Assembly (NCBI GenBank): GCA_035221665.1
Contig: CM069144.1
Coordinates: forward strand, 35,650,001 to 35,714,000
Source of the DNA: Okamejei kenojei
Taxonomy: Eukaryota
Direction of reading: 5' to 3'
Length of the DNA stretch: 64,000 bases
A program made the translations under genes and the position numbers. Under the pieces are notes generated by a model. The model was not told the origin of the DNA and did not search any database. It saw nothing but the letters and a program-made list of their open reading frames with translations. Shown piece after piece: positions 25,204 through 62,350 of this stretch (its first letter is position 1; each line of letters starts with the position of its first letter).

Positions 25204-25703
25204 NNNNNNNNNNNNNNNNNNNNNNNNNNNNNNNNNNNNNNNNNNNNNNNNNNNNNNNNNNNNNNNNNNNNNNNNNNNNNNNNNNNNNNNNNNNNNNNNN
25301 NNNNNNNNNNNNNNNNNNNNNNNNNNNNNNNNNNNNNNNNNNNNNNNNNNNNNNNNNNNNNNNNNNNNNNNNNNNNNNNNNNNNNNNNNNNNNNNNNNNN
25401 NNNNNNNNNNNNNNNNNNNNNNNNNNNNNNNNNNNNNNNNNNNNNNNNNNNNNNNNNNNNNNNNNNNNNNNNNNNNNNNNNNNNNNNNNNNNNNNNNNNN
25501 NNNNNNNNNNNNNNNNNNNNNNNNNNNNNNNNNNNNNNNNNNNNNNNNNNNNNNNNNNNNNNNNNNNNNNNNNNNNNNNNNNNNNNNNNNNNNNNNNNNN
25601 NNNNNNNNNNNNNNNNNNNNNNNNNNNNNNNNNNNNNNNNNNNNNNNNNNNNNNNNNNNNNNNNNNNNNNNNNNNNNNNNNNNNNNNNNNNNNNNNNNNN
25701 NNN
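25204..25703. other. Assembly gap (500 N)
   Basis: Run of N. Confidence 1.
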
Positions 25704-27262
25704 CCCCATATTATTCTTCCCCCCCACCCACAGTTTTTACTATTCGTACCCCCCCCAGTAATTTTTTTTAAAATGGTGGTTTGTTGTTGGTATCAGATTC
25801 CAGTTGTGGGTTTCGAGTGTGCGTGTTGTTTTGGTATGGAGGCGTAGGTCTTACCCCCCCCCCCCCCACATGCCCAGGTATGTAGTTGTTTGGGGTGGGG
25901 TTGTGGATGTGAGATTTGTTGTTTGGTAGATTGAGGGCACCCCACCCCCCTCCCCCCCCCCCTAGCCCCCCCCCCCCCCCCCCCCCCCCCACATAAACTA
26001 ACCCATGAACATTGAAACAAACTTTTAGAACATACTTAAAATTAATAATAACAGTTGAACGGAAACACACACTGTTGGCGAGGTTGCCACGACGGTTGGC
26101 GCCACAAGGGATTAATTGTGTTTGAACAAGCTGTATCTATTATACAGCAGGCCAAGACGTATATGGAATTGATCAAGCTAAGGGGTAAATTCATGAGAGG
26201 AATTAAATAGTAAGCGTGGCATGTACAACAAATGGCAAATCAGTGAACAGGTGAGAGCAGTGAACTTCACGAAGGTGGCACACACAAAGAAAAAGATTTG
26301 CACTTGCGTCATCTCACGAGAAATATTGCAAAGGGCATCACAAGCCATTTAAAGTATTTTTAAGTATATTCACTGTTGTAACAAAAACAATCCGCACTAG
26401 CCAACTTTACATAAGAACAATGGGAGAAATTGCCTGGTAATCATTTCTGGTATGCAGGATAAAATAGTCAAGGGTCAGATTATTGTTTATTTTTCTTGGC
26501 ATTGCTTGACGTGTTTTACTGCATTTCCCTTTATCCGGATGTTATAACACCATTACACTGCAAACTCATGGGGTGGTAAATTGCACCTTCACGTGGTCAC
26601 ATGTTTCGACTAATGCAATCAATCCGACGTGCACAATTAGATCAAATAGAACAAGTTGACCAACAATTTTAGGCTGTGCACGCCATACACAAGAAGAAAT
26701 GCAACTCATAATTGTGAAAAGGTGACCACGCCCACTCTTTTACCCTGTTAACATCTGTGACCGAAGTTTGATTGAGTGGTTCAGCACACTTTGGTGCCTG
26801 GCTCACCATGACTCTGCTATTGCAACTGATCTGCCACCCAATGTTGCCCAACAATTCTAAGCTTATACAACTAATGTAACAAAGTCACTTGCCACCTTTG
26901 TCACATGAAAGCATCTCAGGAAACCACACTGATAACTCAAATTATGAAAAACCAGTAATGTGCGTCAAATTGAGTTTCAAGAGATATAAATATAGAATAA
27001 TGACCAGGGTTCTAAAGAAGGGTCTCGACCCGAATTCGTCGCCTATCTCCTTCGCTCCTTAGATGCTGCTGCACCCGCTGAGTTTCTCCAGCTTTTTGTG
27101 TACCCTCGATTATCCATGCATCTGCAGTAACTTCTTTAACAGAATGATGTCCCATCTTGCTTTGCATTTCTTTTGTCAGGACTACCAGGACAACTTTGCA
27201 CCAGTTCACAGATTGGTTGTGTGTTTATCATTATTGCAGCACAGGCCCCCCCTTGATCCTTA

Positions 27263-27435
27263 AGGGCCTGTCCACTCGGACGTCATTTGCGCATCACGAC
27301 ACGCACGTGACTGCGCATTATGCGGGCATGGTACATGGTAACGTAGGTAGCAGTGCCCATGATTTTGGGATTCGCAAATCTTCTGCATGCCACCTGCGTA
27401 ACGCGCAAATTGCCGCCCAAGTGGGGTCAGGCCCT
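27263..27435. mobile_element. PIF/Harbinger-like MITE
   Basis: Imperfect TIRs AGGGCCTGTCCACTCGG..ATTTGCGC / GCGCAAAT..CCAAGTGGGGTCAGGCCCT, flanked by TTA on both sides. Confidence 0.7.
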
Positions 27436-30400
27436 TTACTGAACAATCATGGGAAAATGCCGGAAGCAACGTCAACCAATGTACGTTATTTTTTCAGCCT
27501 TTTGAACCAGATGGTACAGTGGAGCAAATGCAGTGGCTGCAGACATTAGATTCATTTTGCATTCGCTTCACAAGGACTTGCAAGCTGGCTTTTTAGCAAG
27601 GCTTTCTTTGGCTCCAACACATTTTCATTCTTTCATGCTGTAACTGTGTGCCTCCTTTCCAGACTCCTGCTGGGGTGAAACCTAACGCCGAACAGGAATA
27701 ATGGGGAAAATGTTCAACTAGCTGCAACTACACTCAAGAAATCAGGTCATCTCAACTTCAGTAATCAAGGATACATTACAATGATGGTGCTTGCATTTGT
27801 GCACAAAGACCAAACTCCAGTGTCTTCAACTCTTTCACCGAAGCATAGGAGAGAATGGACCACGTACATTAAACATTTGGAAAATAAGCTTCCGCTGCCA
27901 AACTGCCCCAATTCTACCAAAATTTCCCATTGGTGAACAAAGTGAGAGGCAGCGGACTGCTTTGCCGAATACTTGAGCTCAGTCTGCCAGACCTGCTGTA
28001 TTCCTGGCTGCTAACCATTTTTAACTCATCCCTTCTACTTCCAGGCAAACTTTCTGTGCTGGGCTGCCTTCCTTTGCCCAAGTGAGTTGGAGGAAACCAG
28101 CATCTTTAATCGTGGAAATTGGGAGGAACAGCATCTCATATTCAATTTGATTAGCTGATGAATTCATATGGTATAAAGTGAATTCTCCAATATTAGGAGC
28201 TAACACTGACCCTTCCCCACCCCCCCTATTTTCTCCCTCCTCTCTTCCTTTGCCCCACTGGATTACACACTATTTCTCCTTCCATTCCCTCTCCTTTTCC
28301 CCTTCCCTTGCCCATTCCACCTACATCCCTTCAGGTCTTTCTTCTCTCCTTATCTCACAGTCTTTAGGTCGTATTTTCATTCTCTGGCATGTTGTACACC
28401 CATCTGCAATCAACCCCCACCATCTACATCCCTAGCACTCAATTGCCTCGGTGGTGATAGTGGATGTGTCATAGTGTCTACCTAAAACGGCTCCACTTCA
28501 TCCCTCATCGCACCTGCTCTCCACGGCTACTCCCTCAGCCCACTGTCTCACCCTCCCTCAGGCCATCACAAGGCTCGGCCCATCACAAGGTCCACTCCCC
28601 CACTTCATTCCCCTTCCCGTGCCTCAATGGCGCTGAGCTAACAGGCCGCAAAATAGACAGACCGCGGGCCGGGACACTCGAAACACGGGTGGTATCTACG
28701 ATTGAAAGACAATTAATAGACCCGGAATGAGGTACACCGTATCGTAAGGAAGTTTGCTTGCTTATTTATCTATTTATGTAATTACCCGCTTCCGCCGCAT
28801 CGCCAGCATGACTACTCAACTACACTGGCGGCCTCAAGCCACTCCTCCCTTAACTCCCGGCATCCGCCCATCTTCCACTCGTCGTTTCACCAACACCGCC
28901 CCTCTCCTCTCCTCCAGTCATGTCACCAGCCCCGTTCTCTCCTTCAGGAGAGAGCGCCAGCCTGGCACCTCCTTAAAAATCATGTCTCTGGTCCCGCCTC
29001 CCCTCTTCAGTTCTCGACCGTTCTATGATCCTTGCTCGACACTGGCCCGCCCCCCCCCCCCCCCCACCCCCCCCCCCCCCCCCCCCCACAGCTCTCCCTT
29101 CAGCCAAAGATTATAGAGGATCTTTGCTTCAGCCCGTTCCCTGCACTCTCCCTCTTTGCGACGGTGAAGTTACTAGGAGCATCCTCAGCACCAGTGTCCC
29201 CTGTGGGTGCAGGAGAACAGCTTATAGATGTGCAGAGATGTAGGTATTGAAGTTGGCTCCTCAGGCTCTCACCTGCTCTTGTTACTGCAGTTAAATGCTG
29301 ATAACATTTGTGAGAGTCCTACCATTGTACCGTGAGGGACACTGTATATCAAAACACTATGGGTCAATCAAATAATTTTGGTGGTGTCAAAGGTTATCTA
29401 ACTTGGAAATACAGAGGTGTGGTTTACAAAAGAAGTGTTGGAGAGTAAATCAGTGGTTCATTACTGAAGAACATGGCAGGTGATGATTCAGGTCAGGACT
29501 CTTACAGTAGCTGCCCAGCCCTAAACATCACTGCTCATGTTCTCCAAGATGCAGCCTGACTGCTAGTACTCCAACACTTGGTGTCTTCTATTATTTCAAT
29601 TTACCCGTTATAAATACCAAAACTGAATAATGTTCTCAAACTGAAGTTGTTATATTACAGGGGTTGGTATATGGCACACCTTGCTGCCTCATAATTCAGG
29701 CAATCTGCATTTCAATGCCAAAACTCTGGTTGTCTGCATGGAATTTGCCATCATCACCGCCTCACCTCAGTCCTCCCAATGCAAGTTTGCTCCCACACCC
29801 CAAAGCTAGGGAGGCTGGTAAATTACCCCAGTAAGTAGGTGAATGATAGATTCTGGGGCATGAGCGGTTTTGACGGTAATGAAGGGAGAAACAAAATGGG
29901 ATATGAGGCATTAATTTAAACAGACGGTTTGTGCAAGACTGAAGGGCTATTTCTTATGCTGCTTTTGACTTTAAAGCACAAACACCTTGGGGCATTTATT
30001 TTCAATCTAACCTGTGTTCATTTCAATATGGACTAATTATAGCTTCCCAACCTCTGTCAGATCATTGGACGTAACTTCAATCCTCACTTATTTATTATTC
30101 GGTATTGGCCAAAGCACTATTCTGTTTTGCTCAACAGACAGCTAAACACCAAGCCACTTTCATCATCATGGCATGGATCCAAAAAATATCTAAAGCGCAT
30201 TGTGCTATTGTGTACACATTATTTCCGGCCTCAAGAGCTCAGGACTACACACAAACTCAAAAATGCTCCAGAAACACTAGGACATTATTGTGGCCAGATG
30301 GGAACAACTCAATATTGCTTTCTTTAGGCTTATCATCAGCAATGCTCTGGTGAATGGTGAAGATCGCCAACTGTGACATTTAATTACTGCCTTTATCAGA

Positions 30401-31865
30401 GATTGTGATAGTTGCAGTTTGTTACTTCTACAAACTGTATTTTGTCAAACAATTCCTTCCAAAGCAACTGTATCTTATCTTATCACAGTGGCACAGCTTG
30501 TTAGAGCCATTGCCTCCAAACATCAGAGAACCAGATTCAATCCTGATCGCGTGTGCTGTCTCTGTGGAGTTTGCAAGATTTTCCCTGTGACTTGCTTGGG
30601 TTTCCTGCCACAAGCAGGTTGGTAGATTAAACTGGCCACAGTAAACTGACCTTGTGTTTCAGAGAGTGGTAGAATCTAGGAAGGTGGTTCATGAACAGTG
30701 TAGGTATTGGGCTGAGAGGTTATGTTTCCAAATTCTCTCTGAACCTTAATGATGCAAATTTGTGATCAGTCATTGGAAAGCTAATAAAGAAGTTACTCCT
30801 TTCATTACAGTATTTTCTAAGCATTTTTTTTAACCAAAGAGATTCAAGAGGAAAAAATATATTTAAAAACTGGGTTCTGTTTTATTATAAAATACACATA
30901 CGGGATATATTTCATACCCCAGCACCTTTACCTCAATGTCATAAACCAATCATTACATTTAATTGGTGTAAATCGATTTAATGCACACCCTTGAAAAGCC
31001 ACTCTTTTATCTCAGGAACTTCAGTTCTAGGAAAGTACACTACTTGGAAAAATCCCCAACATTTTTTCCACAAACTCTCATATCACTGGCAACTGCTAAC
31101 TTTGCAAATAGTTTTCATAAAATAAATTGCTAACCAGATTGAAGGATTTGAAGTGAGACTTCACCTCAATGCCAGACATAATACACTGGAGGACATCCAT
31201 AATCACAACCACACATCAATTAGCTCTTTCTTCAAGACAGTGCAGAAGCACATGGCAATCCCAAAGAAAAACCTTTCAAAGGCAACATATCATTCATCTA
31301 AAAGTATTCTATAGATCTTTTGGAAATGCCACCAATAGCCACTTCTTTTTAATGCCACACTGCACAGGCATTGATGAAGGTGTGATTGTGACGGTAACAG
31401 TGCCATTCATATTTCAAAAAAAGATCTAGCGAGTCCTATAATCACTGTTATGTGGACCTTTAGAACCAAAGAAACAACTTTTAGTCAGAATAGCTCACTC
31501 AGATGCTATATGGTTTTAATGTCTATTCATAAATATTTTTACAATGAGCAGGAGGATTCTTGGATAAAAGTGATTGACTTTGTGAGCAATGAGTAATTGT
31601 AGATAATTATAGCTTTCCATGACAGCCCAAGTGACCATTATTAACATGTGAACAACGAGATAATAGGTTTAAAATTCCAGCTGAGTTGTGATCTGTAGTA
31701 AATATATAAATAAAAATGCAGTAAGAATGGAGTCACTGCTTCGGTGCTAAACAAAAGACTAAATTTAGAGTTAGCAACTATTGTTTTTGAGCACCTCAAG
31801 TTACATTTTGCTGATTTAGATTTTATGCTCACCACAAGCTCTGAGAAATTATAGACTTTTACTAA

Positions 31866-32803
31866 TCATGATCCTGAGGCAGAAAGCGCCTTACTTACTA
31901 GAGTGGAAATGGTTTCAAGTCCACAGACCCGTCCTTCTAATCTAAGGAGGAAGTAGTCAGACGTGTTTTGGCCTGAACCCTTCTTCAGACTGTCTGAAAT
32001 GTCATGTGTCTATTCCCTCTATGATGCTGACCTGATTCACTGAGTTGCTCTTGCACTTTGTGTTTTGTTCAAGATTCCGGGATCTGCAGTTTCTTGTGTC
32101 CCCGTGTGTCTAATCTTTTTAACTTGTTTCATGATCCGACCACTTTTTTGGCTCAGGGTCTTTAGTTCAATGTTCTTTTTTCATGACCTGATCTTTAATA
32201 AAGGAACCATTCTGTGGAGTTAAACAGTATGAATGCAAAGAACTGATTAGTTTGCATGCACCAGAGGCAGATGGGATAACATCATCAGTAAATAATACGG
32301 TGCTGTCAATCAGCAATCTTTCAGTAGCTGTGATCTTACTAACTTCGGACTGTAGAGTCCACTGTTGATCTAGGACTTTACACCTATTGGGTTCACTTGT
32401 CACTGAGAGTGCAGGAGAAGTGGAAAATTCACCCAGCACAGGAACCCTCTCAAACACACGTTTGCTTTCCACCATTCCGCAGTCGGGATTTCAGGGGTCT
32501 CATCCACAATGGTTTCATGAAGGACATAAACACTTTGCTGATTGGCTGGAGTTGATTGTATTTTGGGTGCATCCTGGCAGTTACAGTGTTGATCTTCTAC
32601 TATATTCTTATGTTCCAGGAAGTGGAAGATGGATGGAATAGCATTAACTTTGAGCCGTTGATGCTGGTCTTCATGACGCTTTTGAAAGAAGTCTTTGGTG
32701 AAGTGAGCACTGCACAAAAAATGAAAACTTGGTTGGTTTCCAGTCAGTTCGCCCAACAGCATTAATCCACTTTGACAAACGTTTGGTATCCTTCAAAGGG
32801 AAT
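31866..32803 (-). pseudogene. THAP4: THAP4-like exon 2, frameshifted and interrupted by a TE
   Basis: ccag| acceptor at 32803. Segments FPLKDTKRLSKWINAVGRTDWKPTKFSF / LCSAHFTKDFFQKRHEDQHQRLKVNAIPSIFH / VIPSASGACKLISSLHSYC / KKNIELKTLSQK match THAP4 but require frame changes between them; insertion at 31944-32108. Confidence 0.75.
31944..32108 (+). mobile_element. Penelope pLTR-derived short element inserted in THAP4 exon 2
   Basis: Homology to the recurrent cttcttcagac...gatgctg...ctgagtt element; 8-bp direct repeat TCTAATCT at 31936-31943 and 32109-32116. Confidence 0.75.
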
Positions 32804-33298
32804 CTGGCAAATAAATCAGAGAGGCACATGCGAATATAGTTTTAAAGCATTTTTGACTATAAATGTTCATGATGGCAAACAATACTAAGGACAGTTATCT
32901 GGTACAAAAATTCTGCTTTTATTTTAAGATTTGGTTTAGGCTTGTAGCATTGTGGGTTGTGTGGTTATCCAGTTGAGATGTTTTAAGATAATTTAAAAAA
33001 CATATTTGGGTTGACAGCAAAAGCGACATAAATTTAAAATTAGAGCTGAGCCATTCAAGGATGACAGCAGGAAGCTAATCTTCAAATACAGGACAGTAGA
33101 AATCTGAAAACCTCATATCTGATCTGCGTATGTTCTGTTATCTTACAGAAGAAAATGTCAACGTGTAATTTTCTCAGTCGCTTCATTTGAAGTCACTCTA
33201 AACGTTGTTGATAAACTTACATGCTCAAATATTATATATGGGATATAGTTTAGGTTAATGGGGAAAAGATGAATATGGACCTTGGATGGTCTACCCAC

Positions 33299-33372
33299 CT
33301 GTGAAAAGAGATGGATTTAGCTACTTTCCCCTGCCTATTGGTACAGGAATATGCTGAACAAGATATGACCAT
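33299..33372 (-). CDS. THAP4: THAP4-like exon 1 (N-terminal part of THAP zinc finger)
   Basis: MVISCSAYSCTNRQGKVAKSISFH(R) versus human MVICCAAVNCSNRQGKGEKRAVSFHR; AG|GTGGGT donor; head-to-head with ATG4B as in human. Confidence 0.88.
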
Positions 33373-33837
33373 CGCGCGGAGCAATGTAAGGAAATGTACT
33401 CAACACAACTAGTCAATCCAGGACCAATGGCAGTCTCCGTACAACAAGATGGTGGCACCAATCCTTCAACCGGTCATTGCCGCCGCGCACACTGGTTGCC
33501 GGACACCACTTGCCGCCTCTGTTTCACGTCAACTATAACATTAAAGAGATGTCAGTATGTGTGAATGAAACGAATCCCCAATTGATTTAGTTTGCAGCAG
33601 ACGTGCAAACCGATCCGCAATGCTGCTTTGCCGCTGCCCGCACGGCATGATCATGATGGACTTCCGGCGTTGCCGCAGCCCGCCCCCTGGCGGAGAGAGC
33701 GAGCGGCGCAAGCGCGTCCCCCGCGGGGCGGGGCGGGGCGGGGAGGGGCGGGGCGCACCGCTTGGATTGGCCTGGAGCGGCTGTCTGTCACCGCGTTGCC
33801 GGGCGGTGCCCAGTGTGGTGGGAGAGGAGTGTACACA
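33373..33837. promoter_or_regulatory. Bidirectional CpG-island promoter shared by THAP4 and ATG4B
   Basis: 465 bp between divergent ATGs; CCAAT at 33424 and 33458 and ATTGG near 33766; YY1-like CAAGATGGTGGC 33445-33456; ETS-like ACTTCCGG 33660-33667; tandem GGGGCGGGG boxes about 33725-33753. Confidence 0.8.
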
Positions 33838-33847
33838 ATGGATGCAG
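33838..33847 (+). CDS. ATG4B: Cysteine protease ATG4B coding exon 1
   Basis: ATG GAT GCA G|gtaggc; joins exon 2 to give MDAATLTYDTLRF, the ATG4B N-terminus. Confidence 0.85.
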
Positions 33848-35599
33848 GTAGGCCCGGGATCCTGCTGCTCCGCTTCCTCGGGGTAACTGGGAGAAGGGCA
33901 GCTGTGTTGCTGAGCATCAGCCAGTGCGCTAGTTCCCCCCCCCCCCCCCCCCCTGAAACTAAACTTGGGCCTGGCAGCCAGTGGTGCCGGCTGTCTGCTG
34001 CGCTCCTGTCGGCGGCGGGGCCGCACCCGGTCCGCGGCTGCCCCATCTAATTCCCACCCCCACCCTGCCAAAGTCCCTGTCCTGTCAGCCGCAGGACGCG
34101 AGGTGCAACGTGTCCGACCGCTCTGTGAGAGCCGGGCGTTGCGATGAAAGCTGGCGCGTCCTTGTCAGCCTGTGGTTCTCAGCAACCAACCCATTGTATG
34201 AAACTATACCATCCCGACTCTTACCTGTCTCGGTCATCATTCATCAATCTATTGTTCCACTTTCCAACTTGGCCATTGCCTATTCTTGGTCAAAGATTGT
34301 TCTTTTCGCACTGTATACACCGGTACTTTAAATGTACATTGCGTTACCGTGTTATGGTTGAAGTCTCTCCTATAGTAGTTTCACTCTCGGATTCAATTGA
34401 AGTGTTTTGTGGCATACCCTGTTGTTTAATGCAAAGTGCCAGTCTCAGCTTAAATTGCACAATATTTATCTTTGCCTTGTATGTCGAGTTCCTGCGGAAA
34501 CTTACCGCGTGGCAGGATTGCACATATGATTCCTTGTGTAATGTTACTTATCTCTTTCTCACTGATTTGTTCATCTGAGCCCATATGTTGTTACTTGGAG
34601 GTGAGAAGGAAAGAACAGTCCAGAGTGCTGGTCACCTTGGACTGTTTTTTTTAGCATTTGATGGTGAAGGCTCAGAATCTGTTGTGAAAGGGGTGTTTCA
34701 GGAAGAAAATAAAATGGCACAAAAATAAAGCTGTCTAATATAAAACAAAACAGTTTGCTGATGGTATTTTTGTTATACAGAATTTTTCCTGAGATGTCTT
34801 CTAATATGCACTAAATAAAATGTGCTCTTTTGGTTCTCTGAAAATGTCTTCATTTCTTCGTGATCTATGTCACACTGACAAGCCAAATTAATGGCCATCC
34901 CTTGTTACCGCAAGGACGTTGAGTCAACTGTACCAACTGGATCCTTGCATTTCCATTTTTGTGCAAATTCTCTGGGGTGTCCTTTTATAGAATGCTGTAA
35001 AAATGAAATTGGTGAGTAGATTTTTTTTGTATCAGTCCCTGCAAGAGACCCTGAAGGCAGTGCCTGCTTTTGTAATGTGCTTGCTTTGTAATCTGAAAAC
35101 AAAATACTGCAGCTGCTGAAAATAATTTCAGGGTCTGTAGGAAGTGAGTCAATACTTCAGGTGAATTAATTTTCATTAGAAATTGGTTGTCTGATATTCT
35201 TATGAAATTAAACCGATGACCCCTCCTGCAAACTACCAGTGCATTTTTAACTGCCCAATCATCTTGTTCTTCAAAGTAGGTAGCTTCCATTCAAAGCTTC
35301 ATGTTTGAATATCTCCGGTCCAGTTCTTGTCATGGTGCAGCAAAGAAACAGCTTTAACAAAATTAAGCAGTAGCCTTCTGATCATGTGGTTTTCCTCCAT
35401 CAACCTTTATTCATTTGCAACCGTTCGGGATGGTTGGCAACCTCCTCCATCATCTTAATTAGATTTTGAGGAATTTTTAATATGCTGCCCTGATTCTATT
35501 TTTATTTATCCATTCACACCCAGGAGATCTCATAAACTGGCCTCTCTACCCATGTTGGCATTTATTCCAGACCTCCCCCAACAATGTAGTAGTATTAGG

Positions 35600-35836
35600 C
35601 CCCTCTCGGTCATGACTGACCATGGGTGATGCATCCTGGTCGGATGCAAGCCTGGCGATGTCATATGGAGGACAGGCTGTTGCCCATGAAGCACGTCCCC
35701 CCCCCCCCTCCACGTCGCTGATCAATCCAAAGGAACAGCAGGGCCATTGCAGTTTGGCACCAGCGCAGTCGCATGAGCTGCCAGAGCGAGGTTATAGACA
35801 ACGACGAACTGCCTTAGATGCTTCGACTCCGGATTC
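35600..35836 (+). mobile_element. RTE-like LINE 5'-end-derived short element
   Basis: tccaaaggaacagcag...cagtttggcaccagc...gccagagcgagg resembles RTE 5' UTRs; recognised by eye only. Confidence 0.4.
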
Positions 35837-36062
35837 CCAACAATCTAAACATGCCTCTTTTTTCTAATCTATTTGTCCTTCAGCCTCATCATCTAAATTC
35901 AATGTTCTTGGGCTGAAAGTAACTTAAATGAGTCGAGAGTCAAGAATGTTTTATTGTCATATGTCCCAGAGCAATGAAATTCTTATTTGCTGCAGCACGA
36001 CAGAATATGTAAACATAGTACACTGTAAACAATGTGATAAATGAGAAAAAAAAGAGGTTCAG

Positions 36063-36202
36063 NNNNNNNNNNNNNNNNNNNNNNNNNNNNNNNNNNNNNN
36101 NNNNNNNNNNNNNNNNNNNNNNNNNNNNNNNNNNNNNNNNNNNNNNNNNNNNNNNNNNNNNNNNNNNNNNNNNNNNNNNNNNNNNNNNNNNNNNNNNNNN
36201 NN
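36063..36202. other. Assembly gap (140 N)
   Basis: Run of N. Confidence 1.
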
Positions 36203-37429
36203 NTTTTTGACGAACAAGATTAGTATTTTACACCAATACACTGTTTTGAACAAAAAACTACCCATCATGCGAAACCATATAAATAACTTGGATAACTTCA
36301 AGACCGAATTCAAAAACATTTTTCATAATAGACAAATTTTCATTGTTTTCCCACCATTTTGGACGCCTAAAGTGTGACTTTAAAAACTCTGACACATTTA
36401 ATCATGAATATTTAATTCATAAATAAACTTAAAAGGGCCCCTCATACATATACGTTTTGATAATTGTCTAGGGAAATATCTTCATCTATATTAGGAGAAA
36501 AATACAGTAACCTAAAGGTAATACAATACAGTAACGATCCCGTAACGGTCGTTGTGCTTGGTGTCCATTGTCACAACGCCCGTTATTGGGGTCGGCATCT
36601 CCTTAGGTTAAACCACAGAGGCTCCAAACCTCTAATGCTTTTCAAACACCCAACGAGGTGTCCTATGGTAGTAGCGATCTTTGGGTGAGTTAATTATTTT
36701 TTCTTATTTTGCAATTTAATATATCAAAAACATCGTGGTGTCACAAACGCAATAACTGTTTATGATATACTTCCCGACTTTTTAAAATTTAAAAAAAAAA
36801 GCAATTTTGTTGACATCATCAAAACTAAGAAACGGAGCCAATCTTCAATTTGGCAACAGACAGTCCTTTGTTTACCTTTTCCATGGACCAAATCGCTAAC
36901 TTCATTCCTTCGTGTCAACTTTGGAAAGCTCCGCAGCGACCGTTACGGAGACATTTTACTTACAAAAAAATCAGCCCAAATTCTGACGAATCATCGGCCA
37001 TCGATGTCGCTCAGATCCATAAGATAATGGTCCGTTTAGATCGCTTCGGTGAAAATGCTTGGTTTTTGCTGGGACACCAAAATGAACTTTTTTTTAGTGT
37101 CCACCGCAACGTACGTTTGTGTGTATGATGTGTAACGTGCGTTGCGGTGTCCACTCAGATGGATATTCTACTACATGATCAGGTAAATCTCTGTTTTTCG
37201 CAGCCCGCTCGCTCGTCCGGCTCCCCCCCTCCTCTCCCTTCCATCCACCTTCCCCTCCCTCCACCTTCCTCCCCTCCTCTTCTCCCCCCCTCCTCTTCTC
37301 CCCCCCTCATCTTCTTCCCCCCCTCATCTTCTTCCCCCCCCCATCTTCTTCCCCCCCCCCCTCGTCTCCCCCCCACTCCTCCTCTCCCCCCACTCCTCTC
37401 CACCCCCCCTCCTCTCTCCCCCCTCCTCC

Positions 37430-37830
37430 TGGATGCTCCTGGATGTTCATGTTGCCGAACCAGGCCATGATGCAACCAGTCAATATGCTCTCTACTGTAG
37501 AGGCTCTGACATACCAAATCTCCATAATTGTCTCAGGACGTAGAGGCGTTGATGTGCTTTATTTATAATTGCATCAGTGTGCTGGGTCCAGGAAAGATCT
37601 TCGCAAATATGCACGCCCAAGAATTTAAAGTTTTTGACTCTCTCCACCATATGATATAAACAGGATTGTGGGTCCTCATCCTTCCTCTTCCAAAGTCCAC
37701 ATTCAGTTCATTGGTTTTGCTGATATTGAGAGCAAGGTTGTTGTGCTGGCATCATTTGGTCGCTCTCACTTCTATACTCTGACTCATCACCATCTGTAAT
37801 TCGTCCAACAATGGTGGTTTGTAGGCGAAC
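37430..37830 (-). mobile_element. Rex1/Babar-like LINE fragment
   Basis: VESILTGCIMAWFGN motif and KFA-TTIVGRI remnant on the minus strand. Confidence 0.65.
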
Positions 37831-46764: not shown

Positions 46765-47860
46765 ACTTAGTCCCCCTGGTCCTCGCCTTCCACCCCATCA
46801 GCCATCGGTTCAGCACATAATCCTCCGACATTATCGCCACCTCCAATGGGATCCCACCACTAGTCACATCTTCCCATCTCCAGCCCTTTCCGCTTTCCAC
46901 AGACACCGTTCCCTCCGCATCTCCCTGGTTAACTCGTTCCTTCCCACCCAAACCATCCCCTCCCCAGGTACTTTCCCCTGCAACTGCAGGAGATGCAACA
47001 CTGTGGTCGACAATGTAAGCCGATGAACTACCTCCAGAAAGGTTTCTTTTGCTTTCATGTTATTAGTATACCTCCCCCCCGACTCTGTTCAAGTCTTTTC
47101 AGGTGAGGCAGAGGATTCACTTGCACTTCCTCCAACCTCATCTACTATATCCACTGTTCCAGGTGTGGACTCCTATATATTGGCGAGACCAAGCGCAGGC
47201 TCGTCGATCATGTTGCTGAACACCTCCGCTCAGTCCTTCTAAACCTACCTGATCTCCCGCTTGCTAAACACTTTAACTCCCCTTCCCATTCCTACACTGA
47301 CCTTTCTGTCCTGGGCCTCCTCCATTGTCAGAGTGAGACCCAGCGCTAATTGGAGGAACAGCACATCATATTTCGTTTGGCAGCTTATACCCCAATGGTA
47401 TGAACATTGTCATCTCTAACTTCAAGTAACCCTTGTTTTCCCCCTCTTTCCATCCCTCCCCAGTTCTCTGACCAGTCTGACTGTCCCGAGTACATTTTAT
47501 CTCAAATTGCTTTGTTTGTTACCTTCTCCCAGCCAACAATGATCTATTCTGAAGAAGGGTCTCGACCCGAAACGTCGCCCATCTCCTTCGCTCCTTAGAT
47601 GCTGCTGCACCCGCTGAGTTTCTCCAGCTTTTTGTGTACCAATGATCTATTCTACATTGCCCTTGAACTACATTGTCCTGTTTTCACACCTTACACTTCC
47701 TTATCTATGTATCTCCTTCTCCCCTGACATCAGTCTGATAAGAGTCTCGACCCGAAATATCACCCATTCCTTCTCTCCAGATATGCTGCCTGTCCCGCTG
47801 AGTTACTCCATCATTTTGTTCCTATCTTCGGTTAAACCAGCATCTGCAGTTCCTTCCGAC
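46765..47860 (+). mobile_element. Penelope-like 3' fragment and pLTR with two internal insertions
   Basis: PLVLAFHP..SHIFPSP and GIY-YIG YIGETKRRL remnants followed by pLTR; insertions at 47002-47070 and 47551-47639. Confidence 0.8.
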
Positions 47861-50440
47861 ACTAGACCTTCTGATCACGTGTTAAAATTGAGATTTTACA
47901 AGTGCAATGTGAAGTGCTCCAAGATTAGATGTTGTATTCCCTCTTTTTACTTCTAACTTGTCAAAAACTTGTGGTCGACAATGTAAGCTGATGAACTACC
48001 TCCAGAAAGGTTTCTTTTGCTTTCATGTTATTAGTATAATTTTTTAATGGAATGTGGTTATTTAAATTGTTGTTAATTACTGATTAGAAGGGGAATATTA
48101 AATGGAATGTCAGACATTGCAGTCAAAACATTTTACTGCAAATACCATTCCAGTTTATGTCCATTAAATTGAGGTTGTTAATGTTGAGCGGTAATGGCTG
48201 TATCTGTTCAGCCATCCACCCTGGACAATGTCTCATTAAAGAGAATAACAGCATAGGAGTCTGTAATTTGAGCAGTGAGTGAAAGAGATGTGAGCAATGC
48301 ATTCCTAGCCTTCAGGTGCAGGAGCTATTAATTTACTATCATCCGAAGGACAGTGATCCAGGTTTCTGTTGTGAATTTCATGATATCAACATGATGAATA
48401 GGATTTTACAAACAATTGAAATGTAAGTTCTGGCTAATATTTGTGGTTCTATTTAGTTATTTTTAAAGAGTCAAAGCAGGGAACACTCTGGTGTTACATC
48501 GTGCAGTTTAAACTGATTTTATATTGGTGCTCCAGAGATTCTTGTCATATTCAAAGACATAAAGTATCCTTAATTGCGCAGTACATGTGGGCCAGATGAA
48601 TGATGAATTTATATTGTGATCTACACGTCCCTTACATGGACCTTCTGAGACAGCAGAACCAAAAGATGCTGCATGTGAAGATGGTGGTGGAGGGAGGTGG
48701 GGGGGGGGGGGGGGGGGGGGGGTGCAAGTAGGATGGTTGTAAAATTCAAAACTAATCTGCAAAATCAATATTTCTGTTGCCCTCCATAGGACGATGTCTA
48801 TGTTTCACAAAAGATATATTTGTAAAAGTTAAAATATAATAACTCAACTGGGAGGGTGGTTACCTAGTGCTGTATAACAATCAATTTAGTGTGCATTTCC
48901 TCTCAGTGAAACACGTGCTTTTACTGACATTGTTGCTCTGTTTATTCCACCTCAGTTCAGATTTCTTGCAACTGGCTTGTACAGAGAAAACCTAGTAGAA
49001 GAAATTTGAACTGATACAATAATAGAAAATGCTGTAAACATTCGGCAGAACATGCAGCCTGAGCTCTTGAATATGTCTAGCATTTTCTGCTTTCATTGCA
49101 GATTTCCATCATCTGCAGCTTATTGACTTTTATTTCTTGAGCTGATTATCATTTGTAGACAAATTTAATTGCAAATTAATTTCTAAAAAAAGGATAATGT
49201 GAACTATTCAAAACAAGAACTTTACTCATTGTTCCTTTGTCACGTTTTCATTTCAGTTTGTTGAATACATCCTAATAAAATCTGAGAAAATTATTTATTA
49301 TATTCATTAGGAAGGTTTTTAAGGTTTTATTGAAGAGGTCTTCTGGGGATAGAATTTTCTTGTATTTATAAAAGCATAGGCTTTGTAGGGATAGTCAACA
49401 TGGCTTAATGTGGAGGAAGTTGTGACTTACGAATGTGGTCGAGTTTTTTGAGCAGATGATAAAAATGAATAATGTAGGGCATTGGATGGTGTCTACATGG
49501 ATTTTAGTTCTTTAAAATAAACTCGTGGAATATTTTGTATTCATCCGAGAAAACAGACCTGATCAAACGTGGGCAGCACAGTTGCTCATTGAACTACTGC
49601 CTCAAAGCTCAGCGACCTAAGTTCGATAGTTGACCTCCTGTCTGTGTGGAGATTGCTGTCCTTGTGAGCTCTGGTTTTCGTCCAGGTGCCCTTTTTTTCC
49701 ACAAGCTTAATCAGTTAATAAGTGGCCATTGTAAATGCCCTGAATGTAGATGAGGGGTTGGGGGCAATTCATTGAAAGGACAGGTTACTTGGAAAATTAT
49801 TGGGGGAATGGGTTGTAATGTGAGCTGGCATCATCTTAAATGAGCTGAGTGGCCTTCATCTATGTTGCGTGGAAATCTGGATATGGCGTAGATAGTGCAG
49901 CATTGGAGTGTTAGTTTGGATTATGTAGTTCTAACCATCTGACTCAAACAGGAATGTGACCGCTGACTGTTATTGAATAATACATCAATGGAGCTCTTAC
50001 ATCAATCTACCCAGTATCTGCTAAACTCTAAATTCTGTGCCCTTGACAAGAGTTAAAATATGGTTCACTAGCCAAAGTGAAGTACAAGTAGTATTATACC
50101 AAAAAAGCAATTTCATTGTCCATTTCCAAGTGCTTAGAAGGCCTTAAAAAACAACTGTGGAGCTACCTTTGGTGCCTAAAGTGCCTGGATAGGCACTTTA
50201 GGTTCCCTTTGAAAGATGTTAAAGCATCAGCTGAATTCTTGCAACATTTTGCTTATGGTAATGTTCTTTCTCATGAATCCACAATCTGCCATGGTGGGTT
50301 CTCCTGCATCATAATCATTCTGCCTGGGAATTAAGAAGATGCGCACTTTGATAGTAATTAGGATATTGCAAACTTCAAATAATTTATGGCATGTGATAGA
50401 CGATATGCAAAACATTTATGTTATTATGTGCAACCTATTG

Positions 50441-61704: not shown

Positions 61705-62165
61705 GATACTGGCCACATCTTCCCATCTCCTCCCCTTTCGGCTTTCTGCAAAGACCACTCCCTCCGTAACACCCTGGTCAATTTGTCCCTTCCCACCCAA
61801 ACCACCCCCTCCGCTGGTATCTTCCTTTGCAACCACACGAAATGCTACACTTGTCGTTTTACCTCCTCCCCCCGACTCCATCCAAGGACCCAAGCAGTCT
61901 TTCCAGATGAGGCAGAGGTTCACCTGCACCTCCTCCAACCTCATCTATTGCATCCACTGTTCTTGGTGTCAACTGCTCTACATCGGTGAGATCAAGCGCA
62001 GGCTTGGCGATCGCTTTGCCCAACAACTCCACTCAGGTCGCATTAACCAACCTGATCTCCCGGTGGCTCAGCACTTCAACTCCCCCTCCCATTCTGAATT
62101 CGACCTTTCTGTCCTGGGCCTCCTCCATGGCTAGAGTGAATCCCACCGCAAATTGGAGGAGCAAT
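61705..62165 (+). mobile_element. Penelope-like GIY-YIG endonuclease fragment
   Basis: RQRFTCTSSNLIYCIHCSWCQLLYIGEIKRRLGDRFAQQL...PVAQHFN. Confidence 0.85.
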
Positions 62166-62350
62166 TTTCTTATAAATGTCTCGGCATCTGTGAGTAAGAT
62201 TTTGTTGTGGTTGTTTATCCTCTGCCTCGATTTCTTCATTGCAGTTCCCCAGGAAAGGTTATGATTATGATAATGAAAAGTATTCCTCATTTGTGGCAGA
62301 AACATTGCATGTCGTCATTATTAACTCTTACATTCTTTTGATGTGAGCAG

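Follow-up and report, generated by a model that had tools for sequence, protein, structure and literature searches.

Skate THAP4: frameshifts that are likely assembly errors and a Penelope-type insert that ends the reading frame

It is very probable that the frameshifts in THAP4 exon 2 of the skate Okamejei kenojei are consensus errors at a contig end that was falsely duplicated, and that a 165-bp insert in the same exon is a real, skate-wide change that has left separate THAP-only and nitrobindin-only genes. The locus lies in a window of 64,000 nucleotides (contig CM069144.1, positions 35,650,001 to 35,714,000 of the forward strand), for which a sequence-only reading had proposed that THAP4 is pseudogenised. 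Several results speak against that proposal. First, all seven frameshift events in exon 2 are absent from a second copy of the exon in the assembly and from contigs of relatives. Second, the truncated open reading frame (ORF) is kept in two skate families under purifying selection. Third, the nitrobindin half of the gene has open exons 77 kb downstream and a first exon of its own.

The features around exons 1 and 2 are these, in window coordinates:

33838..33847, plus strand: probable first coding exon of the gene taken to be ATG4B, which faces THAP4 head to head; placed from the sequence
33299..33372, minus strand: THAP4 exon 1, coding part, with C5 and C10 of the C2CH motif; correct in the window copy
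32804..33298, minus strand: intron 1, 495 nt, GT-AG, with the donor GT at 33298 and the acceptor AG before 32803
32069..32803, minus strand: THAP4 exon 2, coding, up to the insert-supplied stop; from a comparison of the assembly copies and from run contigs
32109..32116, no strand: target-site duplication, upstream copy, 8 bp exact
31944..32108, minus strand: Penelope pLTR-type repeat, 165 bp, encoding the last ~11 residues and the stop; the remainder is 3' UTR
32069..32071, minus strand: TGA stop in the insert, which ends the 266-aa THAP-only ORF
31965..31988, minus strand: decayed minimal-hammerhead core, CUGAAGA-stem-AAAA, with the G of GAAA lost
31936..31943, no strand: target-site duplication, downstream copy
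31865..31866, minus strand: former exon-2 splice donor, AT and not GT, in both assembly copies
31515..31520, minus strand: candidate polyadenylation signal ATTAAA, whose function we infer

The insert and the THAP-only product

In homolog searches, the homologues of the window's THAP4 were chondrichthyan THAP4 proteins, with skates closest. The public data were assembled contigs, and we compared those of 7 of the 24 listed runs with the locus; contigs derived from transcripts were recognised by their spliced joints, and assembled contigs can drop rare forms, including minor transcripts. Exon 1 and both splice sites of intron 1 are intact, as the sequence-only reading had it: contigs from runs X1 and X9 join 32803 to 33299, the spliced contig of X1 aligns to exon 1 with no gaps, and a contig of X17 has a loose end whose letters are those of exon 1. 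A processed retrocopy was ruled out as the source of the spliced contigs: a genome-wide search found just two matches to exons 1 and 2, both of which contain the intron.

The C2CH residues, the tryptophan, and the AIPSIF box had been described as recognisable, and all of them could be located. The C2CH signature is defined as Cys-X2-4-Cys-X35-50-Cys-X2-His (bioRxiv 10.1101/2021.02.01.429122); C5 and C10 are in exon 1 of the window, and C55 and H58 are in exon 2 of the second copy and in the skate proteins. The other invariant residues (P27, W37, and F59) are present, and so is an AVPTIF-like box (AIPSIF, which includes P81). PF05485 matches the Amblyraja protein with 71.7 bits and exon 2 of the second copy with 48.4 bits (the cut-off is 23.9). 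According to PMC13631171, sequence-specific DNA binding is not established even for human THAP4.

Two variants at the start of the protein are noted in passing. A two-residue duplication in exon 1, in the THAP loop, marks Leucoraja-like sequences (P0011, P0001, and P0012-P0021); it is in frame, which implies that it is tolerated. Also, a small upstream exon at 34225-34244 (minus strand), within intron 1 of the gene on the other strand, corresponds to the MNDDRDR N-terminus of Amblyraja protein isoform X2; this isoform model skips exon 1 and so is without the first two zinc cysteines.

The THAP-only ORF encodes ~255 native residues, then ~11 residues from the insert and the stop. In the resulting 266-aa protein the THAP domain is complete; the linker and the LHSY motif are present, as is the initial portion of the coiled coil. 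The insert does sit in the coiled coil, as had been noted, and the protein would lack the last ~2 heptads. The same insert-coded tail ends the RefSeq proteins of Rhinoraja (266 aa), Amblyraja (266 aa), and Leucoraja (268 aa), and it is present in all 15 of the members listed from a THAP cluster of 39. The tail-bearing genera span two families: Rhinoraja belongs to the Arhynchobatidae, and Amblyraja and Leucoraja belong to the Rajidae. The sequence-only reading expected the gene to be dead or C-terminally truncated. It is truncated, by the insert's stop at 266-268 aa, but with the ORF conserved in two skate families it is probably not dead.

The insertion is no assembly error, which the earlier reading had also concluded: contigs from all seven runs compared carry it or enter it from unique flank, and relatives' proteins have it. 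No insert-skipping joint was among the joints listed for these seven runs. The insert is a high-copy repeat, with 1337 candidates; of the 40 that were scored, 38 lie outside both THAP4 copies, at 77-86% identity. An exact 8-bp repeat flanks the 165 bp, so the target-site duplication stands as first described, but not its length: the original duplication was probably 13-15 bp and extended into the 165 bp, because the family's copies start 5-7 bases inside it and because the Rhinoraja protein has RLEGW ahead of the insert tail, matching the downstream flank.

The proposed derivation from a pLTR also held up, given the hammerhead cores of this high-copy family. Penelope-like elements carry minimal hammerhead ribozymes in their pLTRs (PMC4209133). 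Like those pLTRs, the insert family has CUGANGA-stem-GAAA cores (here CUGAAGA-stem-GAAA), and its copies lie close together on opposite strands; unlike them, the THAP4 copy is a 165-bp noncoding fragment that is partly exonised and whose core lacks the G. With its core broken, the THAP4 copy was ruled out as an active ribozyme cleaving THAP4 mRNA today. Intact-looking cores occur eight times elsewhere in the window (0.1 expected from shuffles), and Rfam had no match within 31400-34500. Family copies stand behind coding ends at three of the four loci inspected. We take these ends, by resemblance, to be GIY-YIG-like; the 80-aa GIY-YIG-like piece that was scanned has no Pfam match. Decayed Penelope-like 3' ends (GIY-YIG-like) are also seen at window positions 46859-47830 and 61708-62163, with pLTR/hammerhead copies, some in inverted pairs; the end at 46859-47970 is broken between two 69-bp direct repeats (47002-47070 and 47970-48038).

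At the former donor, no letter other than that of the assembly was listed in the run contigs, including those of X14 and X17. Intron read-through models from Cetorhinus and Scyliorhinus torazame have glycine at the donor codon, as GT would give. The spliced contig of X1 passes the dead donor unspliced and ends at 31472, 43 bases beyond ATTAAA. If the donor still worked, the insert's stop would precede the splice junction by ~200 nt, so under standard splicing rules the long mRNA would be a target of nonsense-mediated decay. With the donor lost and an intronic poly(A) site in use, exon 2 would be terminal, and the THAP-only mRNA would thus escape decay. This mRNA would then yield a zinc-finger DNA-binding protein that has an HBM-like LHSY motif, a coil minus its last ~2 heptads, and no tether to the heme domain. 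The reverse order, in which the donor was lost and the insertion then fell into a dispensable coil end, would fit equally well.

For selection on exon 2, we used 32 differences from the second copy, of which 26 are coding and 24 are upstream of the insert; each was counted once, without a tree. Among skates, exon 2 has 12 synonymous and 12 non-synonymous changes. The THAP part of this exon has no non-synonymous change (p 0.02 vs. the remainder). Between Rhinoraja and Amblyraja, 2 of 88 THAP residues differ, vs. 15 of 166 others (p 0.03). The contrast was not significant in 15 pooled skate proteins (7/88 vs. 19/166 variable, p 0.26), and there was none between Amblyraja and Leucoraja (2/88 vs. 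2/166). A unitary pseudogene has lesions common to independent reads and relatives, and it evolves neutrally, with omega near 1. Neither the second copy nor the run contigs have the lesions, and the omega of exon 2 comes to 0.27-0.36 across the transition biases assumed (one-sided p 0.002-0.012; 24 differences, a small sample). As judged from these alignments, the counts, though small, show purifying selection on exon 2 among skates. The sequence-only reading had asked for a dN/dS check of the THAP domain; for exon 2 upstream of the insert, omega is ~0.3, which argues against a pseudogene.

THAP4 stands head to head with an opposite-strand gene that we take to be ATG4B, with the ATGs ~470 bp apart, and the layout fits a putative promoter common to the two. 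A plus-strand exon at ~62240-62340 resembles the catalytic-cysteine region of ATG4B. The head-to-head layout could mean that the THAP half is a remnant that has been slowly dying since the insertion, transcribed only via the ATG4B promoter, and that the nitrobindin gene alone matters. The cut coiled coil would agree with this, and dispensability of the THAP half in batoids is suggested by a frameshift in Narcine and by three stingray genera in which no N-terminal half was found (see below). We nevertheless consider a dying remnant improbable: the frame is open and the stop identical in two skate families, all of the C2CH, P, W, F, and AIPSIF residues are retained, and synonymous change is in excess.

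A stretch assembled twice

Read literally, exon 2 of the window has a stop at 32673. Frame breaks are present in the window's letters at all of the sites that the sequence-only reading named, and they amount to 8 surplus bases in 7 events (32116, 32176, 32489, 32494, 32506-7, 32513, and 32716). There are homopolymer runs of 6 at 32716-32721, 6 at 32176-32181, and 5 at 32116-32120, and 5 surplus bases in 4 events at ~32489-32513 account for the frame change between 32490 and 32403. The surplus bases are private to the window copy of the assembly, which bears out the earlier suggestion that the homopolymer indels could be assembly errors. All 8 are likely to be consensus errors. The duplicated stretch and its flanking gaps are as follows:

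25975..37479, no strand (11.5 kb): stretch assembled twice; the second copy is at G000:C14:35616551-35628258, on the same strand, 59.5 kb away
25204..25703, no strand: 500-N stretch before the duplicated segment; the shared stretch starts ~270 bases after it
C14:35628391-35628890: 500-N stretch past the second copy, which ends ~130 bases before it

The second copy of exons 1 and 2 was found by searching the surrounding 190 kb. The two copies are ~93% alike, and their overlap runs almost end to end between gaps. In a global alignment over 10.1 kb, there are 420 indel events between them, 357 of which involve a single base, and 156 substitutions (39 transitions and 117 transversions), which is a ratio of indels to substitutions of 2.7:1. 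Surplus bases rise towards each copy's own contig end, leftwards in the window copy and rightwards in the second copy. Exon 2 of the second copy is open as far as the insert stop. Exon 1 of the second copy lacks a single base at each of two places that are correct in the window, so neither assembly copy is whole.

The run contigs serve as a third witness. In four runs compared with the window, 9 of the 12 indel rows listed are absent in all four runs, and the other 3 are absent in three of the four; the pattern is the same in coding and noncoding sequence. Over 31472-32803, the spliced contig of X1 has 19 gap letters relative to the window (net -13), which is exactly the second copy's 16 + 3, including 32716; this base is not among the indel rows listed in the four-run comparison and is covered through the X1 total. 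Run X2 has the second copy's letters at 10 of the 11 substitutions listed, which makes it a very close relative at the least. When placed on the second copy, X14 covers 1001 bases free of gaps, and pieces from X17 and X19 are gap-free in coding sequence. Because the second copy is open and the relatives' contigs agree with it, we read the window's frame breaks as errors. The sequence-only reading had looked to reads that correct the frameshifts and to transcripts that splice out of exon 2 and give a full-length protein: contigs without the frameshifts were found, but no splice-out was among the rows listed.

PMC9516828 names gaps that separate the members of a duplicate pair as a sign of false duplication. 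As in such cases, the pair here is on one scaffold, separated by gaps, and rich in errors (PMC9516828). The pair is likely to be a false duplication with long-read errors. The copies split the relatives at a few sites (31654, 33487, and 33611), which suggests that they are in part two haplotypes. The 46-kb piece between the 500-N gaps (window 1-25203 plus G000:C14:35628891-35650000) has a 90% match to C14:34550857-34552703, 1.1 Mb off, and its appearance is that of a duplicate contig misplaced into the THAP4 locus.

A real tandem duplication, with the window copy a decaying duplicate and true pseudogene beside a working copy, is very improbable. It would account for two copies that stand in the assembly at 93% identity, and the few differences common to relatives on both sides (31654, 33487, and 33611) point to some real alleles. 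But indels are 2.7 times as common as substitutions, transversions are dominant, errors are graded towards the gaps, and the copies are broken at different places. No contig of the four runs has the window's letters at the listed places, the intervening 46-kb piece is itself partly duplicated 1.1 Mb off at 90%, and gaps between the pair are what false duplication leaves (PMC9516828).

The nitrobindin-only product and the fused form elsewhere

A false duplication and a real insert leave the second product of the fission to be described. Its start is at one further feature:

28786..28809, minus strand: alternative first exon of the nitrobindin-only transcript, MAGDAAEA, phase 1

This exon is ~3 kb downstream of THAP4 exon 2 and corresponds to the N-terminus of the skate 169-170-aa proteins; it is one base short in the window copy and in frame in the second copy. 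Stingrays and sharks have similar nitrobindin starts. Nitrobindin itself has four open exons with AG/GT ends (C14:35605340-35569700), and every protein in the 14-member skate nitrobindin cluster has a length of 149-170 aa. QHLH, in the C-terminal His region, is conserved, and PF08768 matches the Amblyraja protein with 164.9 bits. Splicing of exon 1 to the first nitrobindin exon was ruled out, since phase 2 to phase 1 is out of frame. Directly upstream of the first nitrobindin exon is a CpG-rich stretch (L007:5750-7000), which resembles an LTR-retrotransposon fragment.

Given the insert's stop and the AT donor, skates appear not to have THAP and nitrobindin in one polypeptide: the 266-aa skate proteins have no PF08768 match, the 170-aa protein has none to PF05485, and Pristis has both. 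A fused form of 419-453 aa is found in Pristis, Carcharodon, Stegostoma, Pristiophorus, Chiloscyllium, Scyliorhinus canicula, and Callorhinchus. It is hardly credible that the fusion survives in skates via a cryptic donor upstream of the insert, with the insert intronic in the main isoform, for although exon 2 has GT dinucleotides in its upstream part and a minor form could be absent from contigs, none of the joints and loose ends listed exits exon 2, and no fused skate protein was found in three homolog searches or among the 14 nitrobindin-cluster members.

Like human and shark THAP4 (PMC6275384, PMC13631171), the skate locus has the THAP domain, the linker motif, the coil start, and the nitrobindin exons; in sharks and chimaera, an internal first exon likewise gives a short isoform with nitrobindin alone. 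Unlike human and shark THAP4, the fused form in skates is apparently closed by the insert stop and the dead donor, which leaves two products. The RefSeq proteins called "THAP4-like" (266-268 aa) and "THAP4" (169-170 aa) in Amblyraja radiata, Leucoraja erinacea, and Rhinoraja longicauda are the orthologous products, and they are 90-95% identical to the second copy. The skate split is already implicit in RefSeq's automatic annotation. Those records come without a cause; the insert, the dead donor, and the selection test were worked out here. In the open literature searched, we found no paper on the skate THAP4 split or its cause.

THAP-only models also occur in Heterodontus and Protopterus, which may keep the fusion, so annotation alone over-calls fission. 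Among other rays, Narcine models end just past the start of the coiled coil. The Narcine bancroftii model (P0003/P0022) carries 25 additional residues within the THAP domain, and its shifted frame ends at the coil start; this is possibly an independent break of the fusion, or else an assembly error. The clusters of Hemitrygon, Mobula, and Hypanus have the 169-aa form only (protein records), and two homolog searches did not find the N-terminal half of THAP4 for these genera. The Narcine and stingray states may be independent losses, with Pristis keeping the fusion, or they may be effects of annotation or assembly. It is conceivable, though we would not favour it, that the fusion, which chimaera, most sharks, sawfish, and mammals have retained, was undone three separate times in rays: by a Penelope fragment and donor loss in skates, where both halves are kept; by a frameshift at the coil start in the electric ray Narcine; and, in stingrays and devil rays, by disappearance of the THAP half. 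If this is true, skates would be a natural test of whether the heme domain of THAP4 needs a tether to the DNA-binding domain.

What the probable split means

The pseudogene reading is an artefact, and the underlying skate-wide fission is real. A false gene loss is thereby removed: frameshifts beside scaffold gaps in this assembly are not to be taken as pseudogenes. Because truncation by transposons and gene fission are already known kinds of events, skate THAP4 is a clean new case and not a new mechanism.

The two-domain build of THAP4 has been proposed to couple heme/NO chemistry to transcription (PMC6275384), and a frameshift in rat that truncates the nitrobindin domain leads to dwarfism (summarised in PMC13631171). 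Skates appear to live with both domains on separate conserved proteins, an indication that the two need not be physically linked, and they offer a natural comparison in a laboratory species, the little skate.
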